The position numbers were made by a program, and so were the translations under genes. Source: Candidatus Bathyarchaeota archaeon (GTDB lineage: Archaea; Thermoproteota; CALKCG01; B24; DRYS01). From it: 64,000 nt of DNA. Of the stretch, positions 13,150 to 36,867 are shown one piece after another; position 1 is the stretch's first letter; every line of letters starts with the position of its first letter. The stretch is taken from the NCBI GenBank assembly GCA_025058595.1, contig JANXEK010000003.1, positions 4,233 through 68,232 on the forward strand, written 5' to 3'. The notes under the pieces are model-generated. The model was not told the DNA's origin and made no database searches. It saw only the letters and a program-made list of their open reading frames with translations.

Positions 13150-14643
13150 ATGCGATTTCATATGAAAATATATACTCTCTTCTTAGGTAAGGGGGAGTGG
13201 GGGCCAGGCTGGCCTTATATAGGGTACGATGAGAAAGGGCTATGTGAATCCATAGTGAGAAGGTTGAGGGATAGATTCCCTGATATAGAGTTTGTTGGGT
13301 GTAGGGTTATCTGGAGGTATAGTCGTGAAGAGAGCTGGGAAGTCAAGAGGGGGTTGAGAGAGGCTGACGGACTCCTTCTATGTATAGTGGGGAATTACGG
13401 GACGAATCCTATGATGGATAATATAGGGGTTGAAGCTATAGAGATAGGTAAGCCTACGATACTAGTTAGCTTTATGTATGGTGGAGATTGGGGGTTTATA
13501 AGGATATACGAGAGGGTTAGGGGTAGAGGTTTCCCGGTTCTCCCGATCTCTTCACCAAACTTTGAAGATATGAAGAGAGCTATAGGGGTCATGAAGAATC
13601 TCTACGATATGAGGGGGAGGAGGATTCTAGTTATCACCTTTGATAAAGCTGAGGTTTCGAGGAGCGAGGAGGATAAGAGGAGGCTGACTAGAATGTTGGA
13701 AGCCGAGGGTCTGCCGATAGAGGTTAAGAATATACTTGCCAAATACTATGTTTCACCAGATAGTTTTACGGTTGATGTCCATGGGGTGGATCAAGCTATA
13801 CAGTGGAGGAGGAATGAGGATCTTTATAGGAGTAATTTGAAGAGTATCTTCGGGTTAGAGCTTGTTAGGATCGATCCAGATGAGCTCCTAGATTACTGGG
13901 AGGATGTTAGCGTAGAGGAGGCTGGGAAGGTAGCTGATGAGTGGGTAAATGAGGCTGAGGAAATCAGGGTACCTCGAGATCCTATAGTGGGTGCGGCTAG
14001 ACTTTACCTGGCGTTGAAGAAGCTTCTTAAGGACAAGGGATGCGATGCCGTAGGTATCGAATGCTTCCCAGTACTACTATCAGGTAAGATGCCCATTCTA
14101 CCTTGCATGGCTTTCTCTAAGCTTAACGATGAAGGGATAGTAGCTGCATGCGAAGCGGATATGGATTCAGCCGTAACACTACTCCTAGGGAAGTATCTCG
14201 CCGGTCGGCCAGGTATGATCGGAAACTATTGCCTAGATCTATCAGGTAATAAAGTAACCTACCTACACTGCACATCGCCTACCAAACTTCATGGATACGG
14301 TAGATCATCCCTAAGCTACTATATAGATAGGCATGGTGAAGCTCACTTCATAGGAGCTTCACCTATAGTTAGGTTTCCGCAGGATGAACCTGTTACCACA
14401 GTTAAGGTAAGTGTCTTCCATAGATCGATTTGTATCCGTTATGGTAGGAGTCTAGGCTTACTAGAAGATGAGAAGGCTTGTAGGAATAAGCTGGTCGTAG
14501 AAGACGATGCTAATAGGATACTCGAGAAGCATGATCAGAGTGTATTCGGCTGGCATAAGGTATCCTTCCTAGGGGATTTAAGGTGGGAGTTTGAAGCTGC
14601 TGCTAGACTACTCTCGTTGAAGGTTGTAAAGGATGATAGGTAA
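13150..14643 (+). CDS. L-fucose/L-arabinose isomerase-family-like protein, assigned tentatively
   Basis: About 500 aa cytoplasmic protein in a sugar-catabolic cluster with loose FucI/AraA-like similarity. No diagnostic motif was verified. Confidence 0.4.
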   Translation: MRFHMKIYTLFLGKGEWGPGWPYIGYDEKGLCESIVRRLRDRFPDIEFVGCRVIWRYSREESWEVKRGLREADGLLLCIVGNYGTNPMMDNIGVEAIEIGKPTILVSFMYGGDWGFIRIYERVRGRGFPVLPISSPNFEDMKRAIGVMKNLYDMRGRRILVITFDKAEVSRSEEDKRRLTRMLEAEGLPIEVKNILAKYYVSPDSFTVDVHGVDQAIQWRRNEDLYRSNLKSIFGLELVRIDPDELLDYWEDVSVEEAGKVADEWVNEAEEIRVPRDPIVGAARLYLALKKLLKDKGCDAVGIECFPVLLSGKMPILPCMAFSKLNDEGIVAACEADMDSAVTLLLGKYLAGRPGMIGNYCLDLSGNKVTYLHCTSPTKLHGYGRSSLSYYIDRHGEAHFIGASPIVRFPQDEPVTTVKVSVFHRSICIRYGRSLGLLEDEKACRNKLVVEDDANRILEKHDQSVFGWHKVSFLGDLRWEFEAAARLLSLKVVKDDR

Positions 14644-14664
14644 TACTCCGGGTACAGCTAGATT

Positions 14665-15468
14665 CTACTCTGTTATCTTAAACCATTCGCCATGCTTCTT
14701 ATAAAGCTCCCAACATAGCCAGCCTAACCCTACGGTCATAGGACGCCTTATGTAGGCATCTATGTATCTACGTAGAGGAGATTCCGGTGGACCTAGATAT
14801 CTATCAGAAGAGTACGGCGTCGCTAAGAAGATATACGGAATGATGAATAGAATTACGGCGGCGATACCGGATAAGAGTATTCTCCTCCTACTCGCTATCG
14901 AAAACTCCTCATCCTTGCTTATGAATCTATGCGGGAACATAGGCTGTCTACGAATCTTCCACATATAGGCTGCCCCTCCTAAAGCTATCACTAAGCAGAC
15001 TGTTATGACTATGGTGCAGCCGATCATCTGTAGCAGGAAGCATGTAGGGAAGACCGCCCAGCCATATGTTATGATACAGCCTGGTATAGCGTAGGAGAGC
15101 ATGTGCATGATGATACCTGAAGCTATACTAGCAGGTATATTCCAAGGATATTTCACAACTCTAGCAAGCCATGCTATTATAAGCATAAAGAACGGTGTTC
15201 CAAACATGAAGCTTAGGGGGTTTATCATAAGTACACCTGGCTCTCTTATGAGGGATCTAATAAGCTGTCCTATTGCATAACCCCAATATGCCTCGAACGG
15301 ACCATAATATACCGCTGCAAAGGCTGGTATAGCGGGATCGAGGGTCATACCGGGCATAACTGGAACCGGTATAAGCGATGCAGCACCAGATAATGCTCCT
15401 ATTATCGCTGTTCTAGTTATTCTCCTTGGTGTCCAGAGTTCAACTCTTCTAGAGGTTTTTTGAGACAC
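14665..15468 (-). CDS. Integral membrane protein, possibly the substrate-specific (S) component of the adjacent ECF transporter
   Basis: 267 aa with 6-7 TM segments. Sits downstream in the same orientation as the EcfT/EcfA genes. The assignment is mainly from context. Confidence 0.35.
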   Translation of the reverse strand: MSQKTSRRVELWTPRRITRTAIIGALSGAASLIPVPVMPGMTLDPAIPAFAAVYYGPFEAYWGYAIGQLIRSLIREPGVLMINPLSFMFGTPFFMLIIAWLARVVKYPWNIPASIASGIIMHMLSYAIPGCIITYGWAVFPTCFLLQMIGCTIVITVCLVIALGGAAYMWKIRRQPMFPHRFISKDEEFSIASRRRILLSGIAAVILFIIPYIFLATPYSSDRYLGPPESPLRRYIDAYIRRPMTVGLGWLCWELYKKHGEWFKITE

Positions 15469-15501
15469 AATTTAACTTTTTCTGATAAGACCTATATAAA
15501 G

Positions 15502-16182
15502 TTATCGTCTACCAACTAAGATAAACAATATAAAAGATATTATAGTAGATATTAATAGGATTATGAATAGTATAGAATCTAGAGATAGCACATTCGTATA
15601 TTTAAGGGTGAGATTATCTACGAGAAATACATTCTTTTTCTCTGAATTGAGCGATTCAACTATTATCTCATATTCGCCTTTAGGAAGTTTAATGGATGTT
15701 TCAGCAGAGAAAACGAAAAAGCCGTAAGGAACTTTAAGTCTATCTACACTGTATATAATCCTACGCTCCTCTATATCCGAGATGGTGATTCTAGCGTTAA
15801 CTATAGGTATAACGTCTAGATAGTTAACCCTAATCGATAGAGTATATACTTCACAGGGTATCTTCAAGATATCATCATACTTGGTGGGAGGTATACTTGA
15901 ATATACAGGGCGCCCCCTCCATTTCACCTCTACGTGGTAGGTATTCCTCGGGATAGCTTCGGGGAGGAAACCTGATGAATTGGTAAACCCCATATACACG
16001 ACCATCCCCTCCTTGCTTATCGTTACGGTTGCGTTTGCTAACGGCTCACCTACCGAATCCACACATAGGATCGAGATAACCCCATCATCTGATTCGGCAT
16101 AGATCGAGCGTACTCTAACTACTGCTAGCGATAGGAGTAGTAGAACAATAATCCTCTCACAGCATTCCAAACCCGTACACAC
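15502..16182 (-). CDS. Secreted protein with CarboxypepD_reg-like (Ig-like) repeats and a C-terminal TM anchor
   Basis: Signal-peptide-like N-terminus. EPLANATVTISKEGMVVYMGFTNSSGF resembles the carboxypeptidase regulatory-like fold. C-terminal hydrophobic stretch followed by GRR. Confidence 0.45.
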   Translation of the reverse strand: MCTGLECCERIIVLLLLSLAVVRVRSIYAESDDGVISILCVDSVGEPLANATVTISKEGMVVYMGFTNSSGFLPEAIPRNTYHVEVKWRGRPVYSSIPPTKYDDILKIPCEVYTLSIRVNYLDVIPIVNARITISDIEERRIIYSVDRLKVPYGFFVFSAETSIKLPKGEYEIIVESLNSEKKNVFLVDNLTLKYTNVLSLDSILFIILLISTIISFILFILVGRR

Positions 16183-16993
16183 TCCAAGTATAGGTTAAAA
16201 CCCCTGTGAAGGATGTGACGAATATCGTGAAGAGTATATCGCTCTTATTAAAAGCTAAGCTTTTAATAGGTGTAGGTTTCTTAACGCCGAAAGCTCTAGA
16301 TTCTATCGATAGGCTCATACGTTCAGATAGGAGTATAGCCTCTCTGATAGAGGGGAAAACTATCGTATACAGAGATCGAACTCTTCTGATAGGATTCCCA
16401 TATGAGGCTTCCCACCCTCTAGATCTTGCCGCATCTATTATCCCTTGAATCCTCTCGAGGAGGACCGGGTAGAATCGAACCCCTGTCATCACTATGAAGG
16501 AGATTTTGTAGGGTAGGATCCTCCCGACTAACGATACTATATCGGATATCGGCGTGGTATATGTTAATAGACATGCGGCTGTTACGGCTAAAGCTATCTT
16601 CATAGTAACCGCTGTACCCCATAGTAAACCGGCGTAGGTGATAGCCGTATATCCTATGATAGGCGTTCCTCTAGGTGTAACCTCTAGTACGACCCTACAT
16701 CCGTACTCCGGCGGTATCCTCCAAAGCTGCTCTGGGCTTGTAATCCAGAGCGATACAGTATAACCTCCGAATAGGGAGCCTATATAAGCCCACCAAGCTC
16801 TCGAAAGCAGCTTAACCCAAGGCACCCTAGATAGATAGCCGACCACGGCTATCTGGGCTGCCAGTATTATAAGCGGCTGTGGCTCCAGGTATAATGTGAA
16901 TAGGAATGTACAGCATGCGAACCATATAGCTTTCACGGCAGGGTTCAATCTATGGATGATAGTATCCTTTGCTTCATACTCGAGTAGAACCAT
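16157..16993 (-). CDS. ecfT: ECF transporter transmembrane component EcfT (CbiQ family)
   Basis: About 280 aa with 5-6 TM segments and conserved coupling-helix motifs ARSRGW and ESRAFG. The 3' end overlaps the start of the ATPase gene. Confidence 0.65.
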   Translation of the reverse strand: MVLLEYEAKDTIIHRLNPAVKAIWFACCTFLFTLYLEPQPLIILAAQIAVVGYLSRVPWVKLLSRAWWAYIGSLFGGYTVSLWITSPEQLWRIPPEYGCRVVLEVTPRGTPIIGYTAITYAGLLWGTAVTMKIALAVTAACLLTYTTPISDIVSLVGRILPYKISFIVMTGVRFYPVLLERIQGIIDAARSRGWEASYGNPIRRVRSLYTIVFPSIREAILLSERMSLSIESRAFGVKKPTPIKSLAFNKSDILFTIFVTSFTGVLTYTWSVYGFGML

Positions 16994-18767
16994 CCACTCC
17001 TCCCCCTAAGATATGCGTGATACAGCGATGCATATCTTCGACGGATAATATATCTCCCGGGATGCCATACTCGGATAGCATCTGACTCAGCCTAGTTATC
17101 TGAGGGGGTTGAACCCATGTTACCCGTAGGATCTCCGGTTTAGAGAATACGTATCTAGGGGTACCGTCAAGGATTATCCCCCCCTCATGCATAACTATAA
17201 CTCTATCGGCGAATCTAGCGACAAGCTCCATCTCATGCGTGATCATGATTACGGTTTTCCCATCCCTCCTTCTTAAATCGTCGAGAAGCCTACACACATA
17301 TATCGAATCTATCCAATCCTGCCCTGTAGTAGGTTCATCGACCACTATAATCTTCGGATCCATAGCTATAACAGATCCTAGTACTACACGGAACTTCTTC
17401 CCCCTATCGAGGGAGGATGTAATACTATCTCCATAAGCTTCCAATCCCAGTATTCGTATGATTTCCTCTACCCTTCTCTCCACATACTCCTCAGGGAGAC
17501 CCATATTTCTAAGACCGAATCCTATCTCCTCCCTGACCGTTGCGAAGAAAAGCTGTTGTTCAGGTATCTGGAAGACGTAGCCGATCTTCCTAACTATTTC
17601 CTTCATACTAGCCTTCCTTAGATCTAAGCCATCAACGATTACTTCTATACTCTTATCTCTAGGTTTCAATAGTCCGCATAGGTATTTAGCGAGCGTAGTC
17701 TTTCCAGAACCGTTCTGCCCTATTAAAGCTACAAACTCTCCGCTATAGATATCAAGGTTTACGTCGCGGAGAGCTCTAACACCACTGGGATAGATATGCG
17801 ATAACCTCCTAATCCTGATTATAGGTTCTACAGGTTTAGTAAGCGATGTACCGATATCTTCCTTAGCTACAGAGTCTATCCTAAACGGAGGGGTACGCTT
17901 ATCCCTAAGCATATCGGCTATATGCTTAAACGCTTCATCGATATCCATAGCTAAACCCTCCCTCCAAACACCCTCCATCTTCAACATCATCGAAAGCTTT
18001 GAAACATCAGGTATACGTATACCGATACGTTCAAGCATATCTACCTCCTGCATGACCTCTCTACAGCCTCCATCTATAACCACCTCACCTCCATCCAACA
18101 CTACGATTCTATCAGCAAGACCGATAATCTCCTCTGCATCGAAGCTCGATAGAACTACCGTTATACCATACCTCCTATTCAACTCCTTGAGGACGGAGAG
18201 AACCCTCATACTACCTAGGGGGTCGAGCATAGAGGTAGGTTCATCTAGAGCTATAACGTTAGGCATCATCGAGAGAACGCCAGCTATAGCGAGACTCTGC
18301 TTCTCACCGCCAGATAGGTTGTATGGATTCCTATACCTCAAAGCTCCAAGCCTCGTCGCATCTAGAGCGAAATCAACCCTCTTCAGAATTTCATCCTTCG
18401 GTAAACCGAGGTTCGACGGTCCGAAGGCGGCATCCTCCCATACGGTGAACGAAACTATATGGGCTTCAGGATCATCCATAACCACACCTACGTGCATCGC
18501 TAGCTCGTAGAGCGGATAATCCCTGGTATCTAAACCCTCGACTAGAACGCGACCTTTAAGCTCACCTTTAACATAGTTCGGAATAACCCCGCCCATAGCG
18601 TATATCAGCGTAGTCTTACCTGCTCCAGTCCTACCGAGAACCGCTGTAATCTCACCCCTTCTAATCTTTAGATCTACATCCTTTAACGCAGGTTTCCTAG
18701 ATCCTTCGTAAGTAAAGGTAACATCCTCTAAAATCAACGGGTAATCCTCGTGCATCGATACCATCAA
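16974..18767 (-). CDS. Fused tandem ABC ATPase of an ECF transporter (EcfA-EcfA')
   Basis: Two complete ABC cassettes: Walker A GRTGAGKTT and GQNGSGKTT, signatures LSGGEKQ (twice), and Walker B ALDEPTS and VDEPTTGQD. Confidence 0.85.
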   Translation of the reverse strand: MMVSMHEDYPLILEDVTFTYEGSRKPALKDVDLKIRRGEITAVLGRTGAGKTTLIYAMGGVIPNYVKGELKGRVLVEGLDTRDYPLYELAMHVGVVMDDPEAHIVSFTVWEDAAFGPSNLGLPKDEILKRVDFALDATRLGALRYRNPYNLSGGEKQSLAIAGVLSMMPNVIALDEPTSMLDPLGSMRVLSVLKELNRRYGITVVLSSFDAEEIIGLADRIVVLDGGEVVIDGGCREVMQEVDMLERIGIRIPDVSKLSMMLKMEGVWREGLAMDIDEAFKHIADMLRDKRTPPFRIDSVAKEDIGTSLTKPVEPIIRIRRLSHIYPSGVRALRDVNLDIYSGEFVALIGQNGSGKTTLAKYLCGLLKPRDKSIEVIVDGLDLRKASMKEIVRKIGYVFQIPEQQLFFATVREEIGFGLRNMGLPEEYVERRVEEIIRILGLEAYGDSITSSLDRGKKFRVVLGSVIAMDPKIIVVDEPTTGQDWIDSIYVCRLLDDLRRRDGKTVIMITHEMELVARFADRVIVMHEGGIILDGTPRYVFSKPEILRVTWVQPPQITRLSQMLSEYGIPGDILSVEDMHRCITHILGGGVDGSTRV

Positions 18768-18975
18768 ACAACCTACGGTATACTAAACCTTGATCCCACC
18801 TAAAAAGTTTTGTATCAAGGAGTATATGGAGGCTATCAGAACCATTACAGACTCTAGATCGAGAAAACCAGCCCTTCATCACTACTTATAAACGAGAAGC
18901 TCGGAGCACCGCTCAAATATATCTCCAGATCCAATTTTGGATGCTAACCAAGATTCCTTCATGTTACTCGGTATT

Positions 18976-19312
18976 CTAAGCTATCTTAATCCAATACTTA
19001 GATGCATCCCTTAACGTTATGCTCTCCTCGAGTCTACACCGTAATTCGGTAGGTGTTAGAGGTATTAGATCTAAGCCTCGCGTTATACCAGCCTCCCATG
19101 CTATCCTGTAGAGGATCTTCATCCTATCTTTGAACAGCATACCCTCGAAATCCCTAGATACCACTACTAGATCTTATATCGCTCCTTTTAATCCATACAC
19201 CCTTAGCGTAGCTTCCGAATAGATAGACGCTATCTAATCTGAATCTTCTTGATATAGCTGAGATAAGCTTCTCTATATCTCCAGATACATCCCTCGGTAT
19301 ACCTTCTAACAT
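18976..19312 (-). pseudogene. Minimal nucleotidyltransferase (MNT, HEPN partner) interrupted by a single-nucleotide frameshift near 19172-19176
   Basis: Reading the minus strand from ATG (rc of 19310-19312, preceded by GGAGGT) gives MLEGIPRDVSGDIEKLISAISRRFRLDSVYLFGSYAKGVWIKRSDI, the GSxAKG...SDID NTase motif. It then hits a stop. The +1 frame continues VVSRDFEGMLFKDRMKILYRIAWEAGITRGLDLIPLTPTELRCRLEESITLRDA, a typical MNT C-terminus. Deleting one T in the TT at 19174-19175 restores ...SDIDLVVVSRDFEG... Confidence 0.6.
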
Positions 19313-19685
19313 AGCTTAGAACCTCCTCTGCAAGCTTTAAAGCTCTCTCAGCTTCTAATCTATCGACAGATTCGCTTGGTAAGCCGTTAGCAGCATCTGG
19401 ACACATGGTAACCGTATAGTACTTGTTCAGTATATAGAGTTGATCCTCGAGATCTCTATCTAACCTGAAGCTGGATTCTTTAAGTAAGGCGTAAAGCTCC
19501 GTAACCGTGTGAATCTTCGGTGGATCCTCCCTTCTAACTACGAAGAAAAGAGCTTTCAAAACTTTCTCGACGGCTTGATGGGCGTAGAATGCTACCCTAA
19601 AATACCTGCCTCTAACTAGAGCATCTCTCGCATCTACCAGATCATCCTCAGCCGCTCTAAGCCATAGATGAAACTCTCTCCTCAC
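19230..19685 (-). CDS. HEPN-domain protein, the toxin-like partner of the MNT
   Basis: 151 aa all-alpha protein with an Rx6H motif (RREDPPKIH) and HQAVEKVLKA. Its 3' end overlaps the MNT start by about 83 nt. Confidence 0.7.
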   Translation of the reverse strand: MRREFHLWLRAAEDDLVDARDALVRGRYFRVAFYAHQAVEKVLKALFFVVRREDPPKIHTVTELYALLKESSFRLDRDLEDQLYILNKYYTVTMCPDAANGLPSESVDRLEAERALKLAEEVLSYVRRYTEGCIWRYREAYLSYIKKIQIR

Positions 19686-20471
19686 TCCTTATACCCTAAT
19701 ATGACTTACAGATAAGTATTAGGTGGATAGGCATCTGATAACCCAAGATACCAGCAACTATATCTTGATAAGCCTCGACCTCCGAGCATATAGGTGGAGT
19801 TTATCTTTGGTAGGCTTCGCTTTCGCTACTTCGAGAATCCTCGTTAGATATCTATCGAGATTCTGAGACGCATACCTTCTATACGATGCTTCTTCGATCA
19901 GCAATCCCTACCACAATATCCATCACCCTATCGGCGACCTCCTTAGGTCCCTCCATCTCTTCTCCCATGAACTCTCTCGCGATATACCTTGAAGTTATCT
20001 ATGTATCTTCGAGTGTCGCTCCTTAGTTAATCCACCCATACTTTCATCGCCGATGATCCTTAGATTATATTATACTCTTCAAGCTTCGTGGTAACAGACC
20101 TACCACTAATATTGTCTAAGCTTAAAACTATCTAGGGATTCTATACCATGCTATCGATAACCTTAACTGAAACGTTGTCTACGCAATACTCGATACTAAC
20201 GTAGAGACGGTATATGACATGTAGTGAGGTTTCAGAGAATGGATGTTGGCCTCGATTATATCCGTAGCCGCGATGATGTTTGGGATATTAAGCAAAGCCG
20301 TAAACGGGATGAGGCGAAGGAGGATTCGAGTTCTAGGGTAGATCGAGGAATATTCATGGACCTCTACATGACCCCCGTTATTCGCTATAACTTCAGCTCA
20401 TTCAAACATAGGCTTAAACCTAGGATAGATACACTCCTCCCCTCGATTAGAACCTTCTGAAGGGATTATCT

Positions 20472-20536
20472 ATGGATTTTGAGGTGATTATTAATGGCGG
20501 AGGTATGGAAATATTCATGGTCTACCCCCGGGGGGT
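20472..20536 (+). repeat. Copy A of a ~65-nt repeat ending in a C5G6 palindrome. The inverted partner is at 36801-36867.
   Basis: atggattttgaggtgattattaatggcggaggtatggaaatattcatggtctacccccggggggt is the exact reverse complement of 36801-36867 apart from homopolymer length (C5G6 versus C7G6). A partial related segment lies at about 20346-20370. Confidence 0.7.
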
Positions 20537-20785
20537 GGACCTACTCAAATATCCTCCCCCATATAATCCTATTCAGGTAACCTATATTCTCCGTTAGATT
20601 GGATAGCATCATAGTTCCTCGCTCGAGTAAAGGAGAATATCCGGGTGAAGAGATTCAAGATATTATCCAGTCTACACTCAGCTCCGTAGATTTTAGGGGG
20701 GATGAGTTAAGTACGTGTATGTAGGCTAGAACGATTAAATGAGCCTATAAGGTTATTCGGTAGACGTGATTAGGATATGTTGGAG

Positions 20786-20860
20786 TGGACCGGGAGGGAT
20801 TTGAACCCTCGACCTCCCCCGCGCCAAGGGGGCGATCATACCGGTCTGATCTACCGGCCC
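20786..20860 (-). tRNA. tRNA-Ala (anticodon GGC), 75 nt, intron-less, with no encoded CCA
   Basis: Manual fold of the reverse complement: acceptor GGGCCGG/CCGGTCC with the G3:U70 Ala identity pair, D stem GATC/GATC, anticodon stem CCCCC/GGGGG, loop TTGGCGC, variable AGGTC, T arm GAGGG-TTCAAAT-CCCTC, discriminator A. Confidence 0.85.
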
Positions 20861-36800: not shown

Positions 36801-36867
36801 ACCCCCCCGGGGGGTAGACCATGAATATTTCCATACCTCCGCCATTAATAATCACCTCAAAATCCAT
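36801..36867 (-). repeat. Copy B of the ~65-nt repeat, the inverted partner of 20472-20536
   Basis: acccccccggggggtagaccatgaatatttccatacctccgccattaataatcacctcaaaatccat equals the reverse complement of copy A except for C/G homopolymer lengths. Confidence 0.7.

Follow-up and report, generated by a model that had tools for sequence, protein, structure and literature searches.

What becomes of a toxin-antitoxin pair when the antitoxin gene is split by a single base? The question is raised by a HEPN-MNT gene pair on the minus strand of a 64,000-nucleotide stretch of DNA (the window) from a Candidatus Bathyarchaeota archaeon (contig JANXEK010000003.1, assembly GCA_025058595.1), in which the gene for a HEPN-domain protein precedes that for a minimal nucleotidyltransferase (MNT). 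The original prediction described an MNT carrying a +1 frameshift next to an intact and possibly active HEPN RNase, and offered a sequencing error or a programmed frameshift as alternatives. Its recognition of the pair was sound, as both partners match their Pfam families (PF05168 and PF01909) and all coordinates check (Table 1); its view of the HEPN was not. We consider it most probable (about 0.8) that the locus is a horizontally acquired class II HEPN/MNT cassette which is decaying as a whole by ordinary pseudogenisation, and the rival explanations, even when taken together, seem unlikely to us.

The lesion in the MNT gene is readily delimited. Its ATG (19312-19310), preceded by GGAGGT as had been predicted, lies within the 3' end of the HEPN open reading frame (ORF), and the frame so opened reads ...LFGSYAKGVWIKRSDI (= VYLFGSYAKGVWIKRSDI) before running out of frame into RSSSGI and a TAG, which makes six sense codons before the stop and not the eight first counted. 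The remainder of the protein (DLVVVSRDFEGM...LRDASKYWIKIA) continues in the other frame from 19173 and had been recognised correctly in the 62-aa ORF at 19164..18976. A family hidden Markov model (HMM; 30 homologues) is matched over positions 1-46 by the first frame and over positions 47-111 by the second; zero residues are lost, and the two halves match at E=2.7e-13 and 2.1e-26, far beyond chance. Deleting in silico one A of the minus-strand GATATAAGAT, which takes one T out of the plus-strand TT at 19174-19175, indeed gives a single 111-aa MNT that contains 'GSYAKGVWIKRSDIDLVVVS' with SDIDLVVVS restored, and the PF01909 match improves from E=1.7e-6 (positions 1-34) to E=2.2e-12 (positions 1-79). 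The frameshift falls exactly between the two catalytic Asp of the GSX10DXD motif, of which the N-terminal fragment holds GS and the first Asp, and the motif is uninterrupted (GS-YAKGVWIKRS-D-I-D) only after repair. With the insertion lodged between the two catalytic Asp, the active site is incomplete in each fragment. Since, furthermore, the repaired protein deviates from the strongly conserved columns of the 30 homologues by conservative changes only (I/L, M/L, D/E, T/V), the frameshift is the sole lesion of the MNT and is probably recent. An enzyme assembled from two MNT pieces was rejected, as the break parts the catalytic Asp and the C-terminal piece could start only at an internal GTG that lacks a ribosome-binding site.

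Could the extra base be an artefact, so that the true genome would have one T fewer and an intact MNT? The sequences are metagenome-assembled genomes (MAGs), in which single-base indels occur at low coverage, and several of the split genes among the 66 comparison loci described below come from contigs at 1.5-3x coverage. However, the exact 151-aa HEPN is found on four contigs in public assemblies, and the 710-bp HEPN-MNT core, extra base included, is identical in the window and in three other assemblies, namely L001 (GCA_033581435.1), L002 (GCA_026414345.1) and L003 (the Logan assembly of SRR15826900). L002 shows 22 mismatches to the window over 9.3 kb of flank and therefore represents a different population, and as L001-L003 each have 1-22 differences from the window, none of them is simply the window itself; in three NCBI MAGs a 54-aa C-terminal fragment of the MNT is annotated as a hypothetical protein. 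The context of the frameshift, ATAAGA, is not a homopolymer, and a collection of 5.8 billion proteins contained no intact MNT allele above 60% identity, the best full-length MNT reaching 60%. Two scans of metagenomes bear only on where the lineage occurs: an exact-pattern scan of metagenome contigs for both alleles returned nothing and is uninformative, as the lineage is absent from that collection, and a protein-guided scan brought up nothing closer than 53% identity, which shows only the same absence from the collection. Besides the window, the only known representatives of the lineage are L001-L003 and a sister locus, L010, and the scan of species-representative genomes with the HEPN alignment gave a best identity to the window HEPN of 73%. 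The recurrence of this lesion in three assemblies besides the window makes a sequencing error very unlikely, and on these sequence comparisons the MNT frameshift is genuine, as had been predicted, and fixed. Programmed +1 ribosomal frameshifting or other recoding, by which a full-length MNT would be made from the two frames, strikes us as scarcely credible. The clean single-base shift with zero residues lost and a repaired MNT otherwise without damage would suit such a mechanism, but the site itself, GAU AUA A GAU, does not. A P-site Ile tRNA paired with AUA is unable to pair again with UAA; neither codon is hungry, since in 35 long ORFs ATA supplies 65% of the codons for Ile and the next zero-frame codon, AGA, 33% of those for Arg; translation in the zero frame would end not at the shift site but six codons further on; and no run of identical bases is available for transcriptional slippage. 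Furthermore, the 30 closest MNT homologues are all single ORFs (86-137 aa), none with this shift, and the MNT is a single ORF at 58 of the 63 assessable subfamily loci, the few broken copies breaking elsewhere. With neither a slippery P-site next to a rare or stop A-site codon nor a conserved two-ORF structure among orthologues, programmed frameshifting finds no support.

The HEPN gene, in turn, has an open frame and a strong PF05168 match (E=1.2e-25, 90.3 bits against a cut-off of 22, residues 7-128), but it is degenerate where its family is most conserved. We aligned it with 120 archaeal homologues of 129-137 aa and 60-75% identity from Thermoproteota, Archaeoglobi, Nezhaarchaeota, Methanomethylicota and others. 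A segment reading NKYYT[VI][TS]RYPDAANGLPSE is almost invariant across these homologues, and their [TS]RYPD signature has Arg at position 94 in 117 and Tyr at position 95 in 118 of the 120; RYPD is kept even in the distantly related solved structures TT1696 (1UFB), TM0613 (1O3U) and ST0689 (1WOL). At this position the window HEPN reads T-M-C-P-D, and it is the only one of the 121 sequences in which R94 and Y95 are both replaced. Its stop codon is lost as well: the 3' end reads GGA TGT ATC TGG in the window against GGA TTT ATC TGA in L010, and the change from TGA to TGG has added a 17-aa C-terminal tail (residues 135-151) beyond the ancestral length of 134 aa, which is the commonest C-terminal end of the family (63/120 homologues). 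With Met-Cys for a near-invariant Arg-Tyr and without its stop, the HEPN can hardly be called intact or possibly active, as it had been. The Rx6H motif on which that description drew is present as a string, R52-x6-H59, and in that respect was read correctly; it is situated, however, in the insert between helices 2 and 3 instead of at the canonical position of the HEPN catalytic Arg, it is less conserved than RYPD (R52 in 104/120 and H59 in 103/120 homologues), and TM0613 has a Tyr at the position equivalent to H59. E40 and K44 (Ex3K, helix 2) are present in the window HEPN.

The placement of these residues is aided by an AlphaFold model of the window HEPN (predicted local distance difference test, pLDDT, 89.7; predicted template-modelling score, pTM, 0.82), in which helix 1 spans residues 3-24, helix 2 residues 28-51 with E40-x3-K44, the insert residues 52-76 with R52...H59, helix 3 residues 77-94 and a loop residues 95-108, helix 4 beginning at 109; the last block, at the end of the read-through tail, has a pLDDT of 54. 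A fold search with this model gave HEPN structures as the best PDB matches (1UFB, 1WOL, 3O10, 1O3U, 2HSB) and confirms the HEPN-T fold, with a target-normalised template-modelling (TM) score of 0.88 for TT1696 and further matches to ST0689, the sacsin HEPN, TM0613 and AF0298. A profile search of the PDB reached only three PF05168 structures, TT1696, TM0613 and ST0689 (E=5e-17 to 7e-10), so R94 was placed through the helix positions of the model and the published position of the motif instead of by sequence comparison with HepT. In HEPN domains the Rx4-6H motif is located where helix 3 ends or the helix-3/4 loop begins (PMC3710099), and in HEPN-T proteins an alternative conserved His is supplied by the helix-2/3 insert (Anantharaman et al., PMC3710099). 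Judged by the model, the superfamily catalytic Arg would correspond by position to R94, at the end of helix 3, where the homologues have Arg and the window HEPN has Met, and H59 would correspond to the alternative His of the HEPN-T proteins. Class II (PF05168) HEPNs have been reported to be without the RX4H RNase motif, and a conserved Tyr in them has been proposed as the site of adenylylation (Yao et al., PMC7641770). Y95, a Cys in the window, is the obvious candidate for this putatively adenylylated Tyr.

A second, independently damaged copy is provided by L010, a single 2.4-kb Logan contig from SRR7039830 whose source is a relative roughly 97% identical to the window, with about 94-98% identity at the level of DNA. 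Its HEPN shares the ATG of codon 94 (Met94) with the window, but codon 95 is still TAT (Tyr95) and the TGA stop is still in place; a 1-nt deletion in codon 19 (a -1 frameshift) leaves only a 92-aa fragment to be called. Homology to the window MNT stops after about codon 22 and resumes at window 13653: the intervening 5.6 kb (window 13654-19248) have been lost by a deletion at an imperfect direct repeat of 14 nt, CTCAGCT(A/T)TATCAA. Positions 1450-2398 of L010 correspond to window 13653-12703, and the deletion takes the energy-coupling-factor (ECF) transporter ATPase, CbiQ and their neighbours together with most of the MNT. Because R94M is common to both lineages and was followed by different lesions in each, the locus has the classic look of a module that decayed once it had been disarmed.

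These observations suggest the following history. The cassette would have been acquired by a Bathyarchaeota lineage within an insertion of ~2 kb directly 3' of a tRNA-Ala(GGC) gene. By analogy, the ancestral HEPN would have been the harmful partner, with a putative RNase or RNA-binding site formed by Arg94 (helix 3 end), His59 (insert) and Glu40 (Ex3K, helix 2), and the MNT would have neutralised it via GSX10DXD, probably by nucleotidylylating a conserved Tyr. R94M, being common to L010, may have come first, disarming the toxin and removing selection on the antitoxin; decay then presumably proceeded independently, the window lineage gaining Y95C, the stop loss and the +1 insertion in the MNT, and the L010 lineage the -1 frameshift in the HEPN and the 5.6-kb deletion that removed the MNT after about codon 22. 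Several points weigh against this reconstruction. The four assemblies may not all be independent samples, only L002 being clearly a different population, and the 1-nt deletion of L010 could be an assembly error since this is a single contig, although an artefact is a less likely explanation for its M94 and its large deletion. HEPN codons 1-135 differ by four synonymous, four non-synonymous and one stop change, which is too few for a ratio of non-synonymous to synonymous rates (dN/dS). Moreover, we infer the roles of R94 and Y95 only from conservation and position, and with a frame open over 151 codons in four assemblies and a confidently predicted fold, some residual or altered function of the HEPN is conceivable.

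Two explanations start from this open frame. If the HEPN were still an RNase and only the MNT had been knocked out, the locus would hold an active orphan toxin, tolerated through low expression or another MNT acting in trans. The ORF is identical in four assemblies, R52-x6-H59, E40 and K44 are present in a confidently predicted fold, and two loci from low-coverage MAGs (L038 and L067) likewise pair an open, RYPD-containing HEPN with a disrupted MNT. Yet R94M and Y95C alter the best-conserved pair of neighbouring residues in the family, at the canonical position of the catalytic Arg, the stop has been lost, the M94-carrying HEPN of L010 is frameshifted, and the 64-kb window contains no further member of this subfamily, be it HEPN or MNT, all of which makes an orphan toxin improbable. 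We see slightly more, though still little, in a domesticated solo HEPN, in which the M94/C95 protein with its 17-aa tail would be kept for another task, such as RNA or nucleotide binding, and the MNT alone would be a pseudogene. Non-catalytic HEPN domains provide a precedent (PMC3710099), and the frame is open in all assemblies; at ≥99.75% identity among these, however, an open frame is expected by default, the HEPN of L010 is frameshifted, and the tail follows from a simple TGA to TGG change and ends at low model confidence. Should a detoxified HEPN have been retained in a non-toxic role after loss of its MNT partner, a class II toxin would here be caught in the course of domestication, for which we see only a slim chance. 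A variant in which unconventional +1 recoding at AUA-A-GAU still produces MNT is less likely than the domesticated HEPN. We return to whole-cassette decay as the preferred reading.

Table 1. Coordinates in the window of the HEPN-MNT cassette, its lesions and its boundaries.
Feature	Position	Strand	Evidence or remark
HEPN ORF, class II / PF05168 type	19230..19685	-	151 aa, GTG start; frame open but degenerate
R52-x6-H59 (RREDPPKIH), literal Rx6H string	19509..19532	-	loop residues 52-60 in model
Codons 94-95, ATG TGT (Met-Cys) replacing family Arg-Tyr	19401..19406	-	alignment of homologues
Lost HEPN stop, TGG (Trp135) vs TGA in L010	19281..19283	-	alignment with L010
GGAGGT, Shine-Dalgarno-like	19321..19326	-	8 nt upstream of MNT ATG; read from sequence
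MNT N-terminal fragment	19154..19312	-	52 aa + stop; PF01909 positions 1-34, E=1.7e-6; family HMM 1-46
Frameshift site	19174..19175		insertion of a single A (minus strand; a T on the plus strand) within GAT ATA A GAT
MNT C-terminal part	18976..19173	-	family HMM 47-111, E=2.1e-26; listed 62-aa ORF from GTG 19164
Lineage-specific segment	18807..20778		~1.97 kb; ~1.1 kb ORF-less DNA + HEPN-MNT cassette
tRNA-Ala(GGC), boundary of inserted segment	20785..20860	-	ARAGORN; Rfam RF00005, 59.3 bits

How exceptional is such a damaged pair? A census with one genome per species, based on a scan with the HEPN alignment, yielded 73 loci, and 66 loci of the same subfamily were classified by family HMMs on six-frame ORFs. 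Both genes are intact at 49 of them, the HEPN is broken beside an intact MNT at nine, the HEPN is open beside a disrupted MNT at three, both genes are broken at two, and three are cut off by contig ends. At least one partner is thus disrupted at 14 of the 66 loci. The original prediction had considered an inactivated MNT beside a possibly active HEPN unusual, but a disrupted partner is clearly common in this subfamily, in which loss of the toxin first predominates. Some of these lesions may be errors of low-coverage assembly; of the nine HEPN-only cases, two show nothing more than a short N-terminus, and the three MNT-only cases comprise an N-terminal frameshift (L038), a C-terminus replaced just after SDI (L067) and a probably intact gene (L075). 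The loci at which the HEPN is split by a frameshift or stop beside an intact MNT are L031, L056, L063, L066, L068, L069, L072, L073 and L074.

The surroundings of the cassette point to its arrival by insertion. Related Bathyarchaeia (L164-L169, ~80% nucleotide identity) are without HEPN and MNT at this site, where they share the order Nre, isopropylmalate/homocitrate synthase, PUA, LSM, L37e, tRNA-Ala(GGC), 169 bp, ECF ATPase and CbiQ. Homology between them and the window stops at 20779, 3' of the tRNA-Ala, and resumes at 18806, the relatives having 169 bp in between, and the tRNA-Ala occupies the same syntenic position in L164 and L170. Because these relatives are without it at this site, the segment is best seen as a lineage-specific insertion beside a tRNA gene. 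Att-type direct repeats of the tRNA 3' end were not convincingly found at the far boundary, the only possible att remnant being a 14-nt stretch (13/14 match) between the T-arm of the tRNA (20804-20817) and 19770-19783. The ORF-less stretch (19686-20778) has no ORF above 78 aa; Pfam searches with the eight small ORFs of this 1.1-kb DNA gave nothing below E=0.07, and blastn of the ORF-less DNA against plasmids gave no match. Directly 5' of the GTG start of the HEPN, in the region of window position 19685, stands TATAAGGA. No obvious archaeal TATA box, and hence no promoter of the cassette, was seen at the usual distance upstream of this start; a scan for bacterial-type promoters and terminators, a type of scan not appropriate for an archaeon, gave the same result as shuffled sequence.

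Downstream of the same L37e and tRNA-Ala(GGC), the genes of L170-L173, a further group of related Bathyarchaeia, are wholly different from those of L164-L169, so that this is a variable site, and the flank of the tRNA may be a hotspot of recombination or insertion. The window also contains a 64-nt repeat in two inverted copies of 98% identity (20472-20536 and 36803-36867), which lie 16 kb apart in ORF-less intergenic DNA, have a GC-rich hairpin (GGTCTACCCCCGGGGGGTGGACC) at one end and are without similarity in their flanks. This repeat has no Rfam match and is confined to this lineage (L001, L002 and, in part, L010), being absent from the other fetched loci; it may be a small element, either mobile or regulatory.

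In itself the locus is of little importance, as decaying toxin-antitoxin cassettes are commonplace. For annotation, the window HEPN should not be listed among active toxins, and both small ORFs should be treated as halves of one MNT pseudogene. Beyond this, the two lineages amount to a natural experiment, in which both have R94M and then decayed independently; this would fit a functionally critical role for the Arg and Tyr of RYPD in class II HEPNs and points to the first mutants for testing.

How, finally, does the cassette relate to known systems? PADLOC gave no match for the HEPN and only generic candidate-system nucleotidyltransferase matches for the MNT. The closest counterparts are the class II HEPN/MNT modules (PF05168 + PF01909) of thermophilic archaea and bacteria, so named by Yao et al. 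2020 (PMC7641770); predicted by Makarova and Koonin and abundant in thermophilic archaea, they had neither biochemical characterisation nor experimental proof as toxin-antitoxin systems as of that publication. The window pair shares with them the Pfam families, the order HEPN-then-MNT with overlapping frames (the ancestral overlap being 32 nt in the window and 35 nt in L004), the 60-75% identity of its HEPN to more than 100 archaeal members, and the GSX10DXD of the repaired MNT; it departs from them in R94M, Y95C and the stop loss of the HEPN and in the +1 frameshift of the MNT. TT1696 (1UFB), TM0613 (1O3U) and ST0689 (1WOL) likewise have the fold of the window HEPN, with TM scores up to 0.88, but all three keep the [TS]RYPD that is replaced here. 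Resemblance to the type VII (Class I) HepT/MntA system is more distant. A HEPN-fold partner is combined there, too, with a minimal nucleotidyltransferase carrying GSX10DXD, and the fold of the window HEPN is weakly similar to that of HepT (6M6U_D, TM 0.53-0.60). In contrast, the only significant Pfam match of the window HEPN is PF05168 and not DUF86/PF01934 or PF08780, it contains no RX4HXY string, MntA is the upstream gene in type VII (PMC7641770) whereas the HEPN is upstream in the window, and the repaired MNT scores 30.4 bits against the NCBIfam model MntA_antitoxin (NF047752), below its cut-off of 60. By these features of sequence and gene order, the locus is not type VII HepT/MntA in the strict sense but belongs, as a damaged member, to the class II modules.

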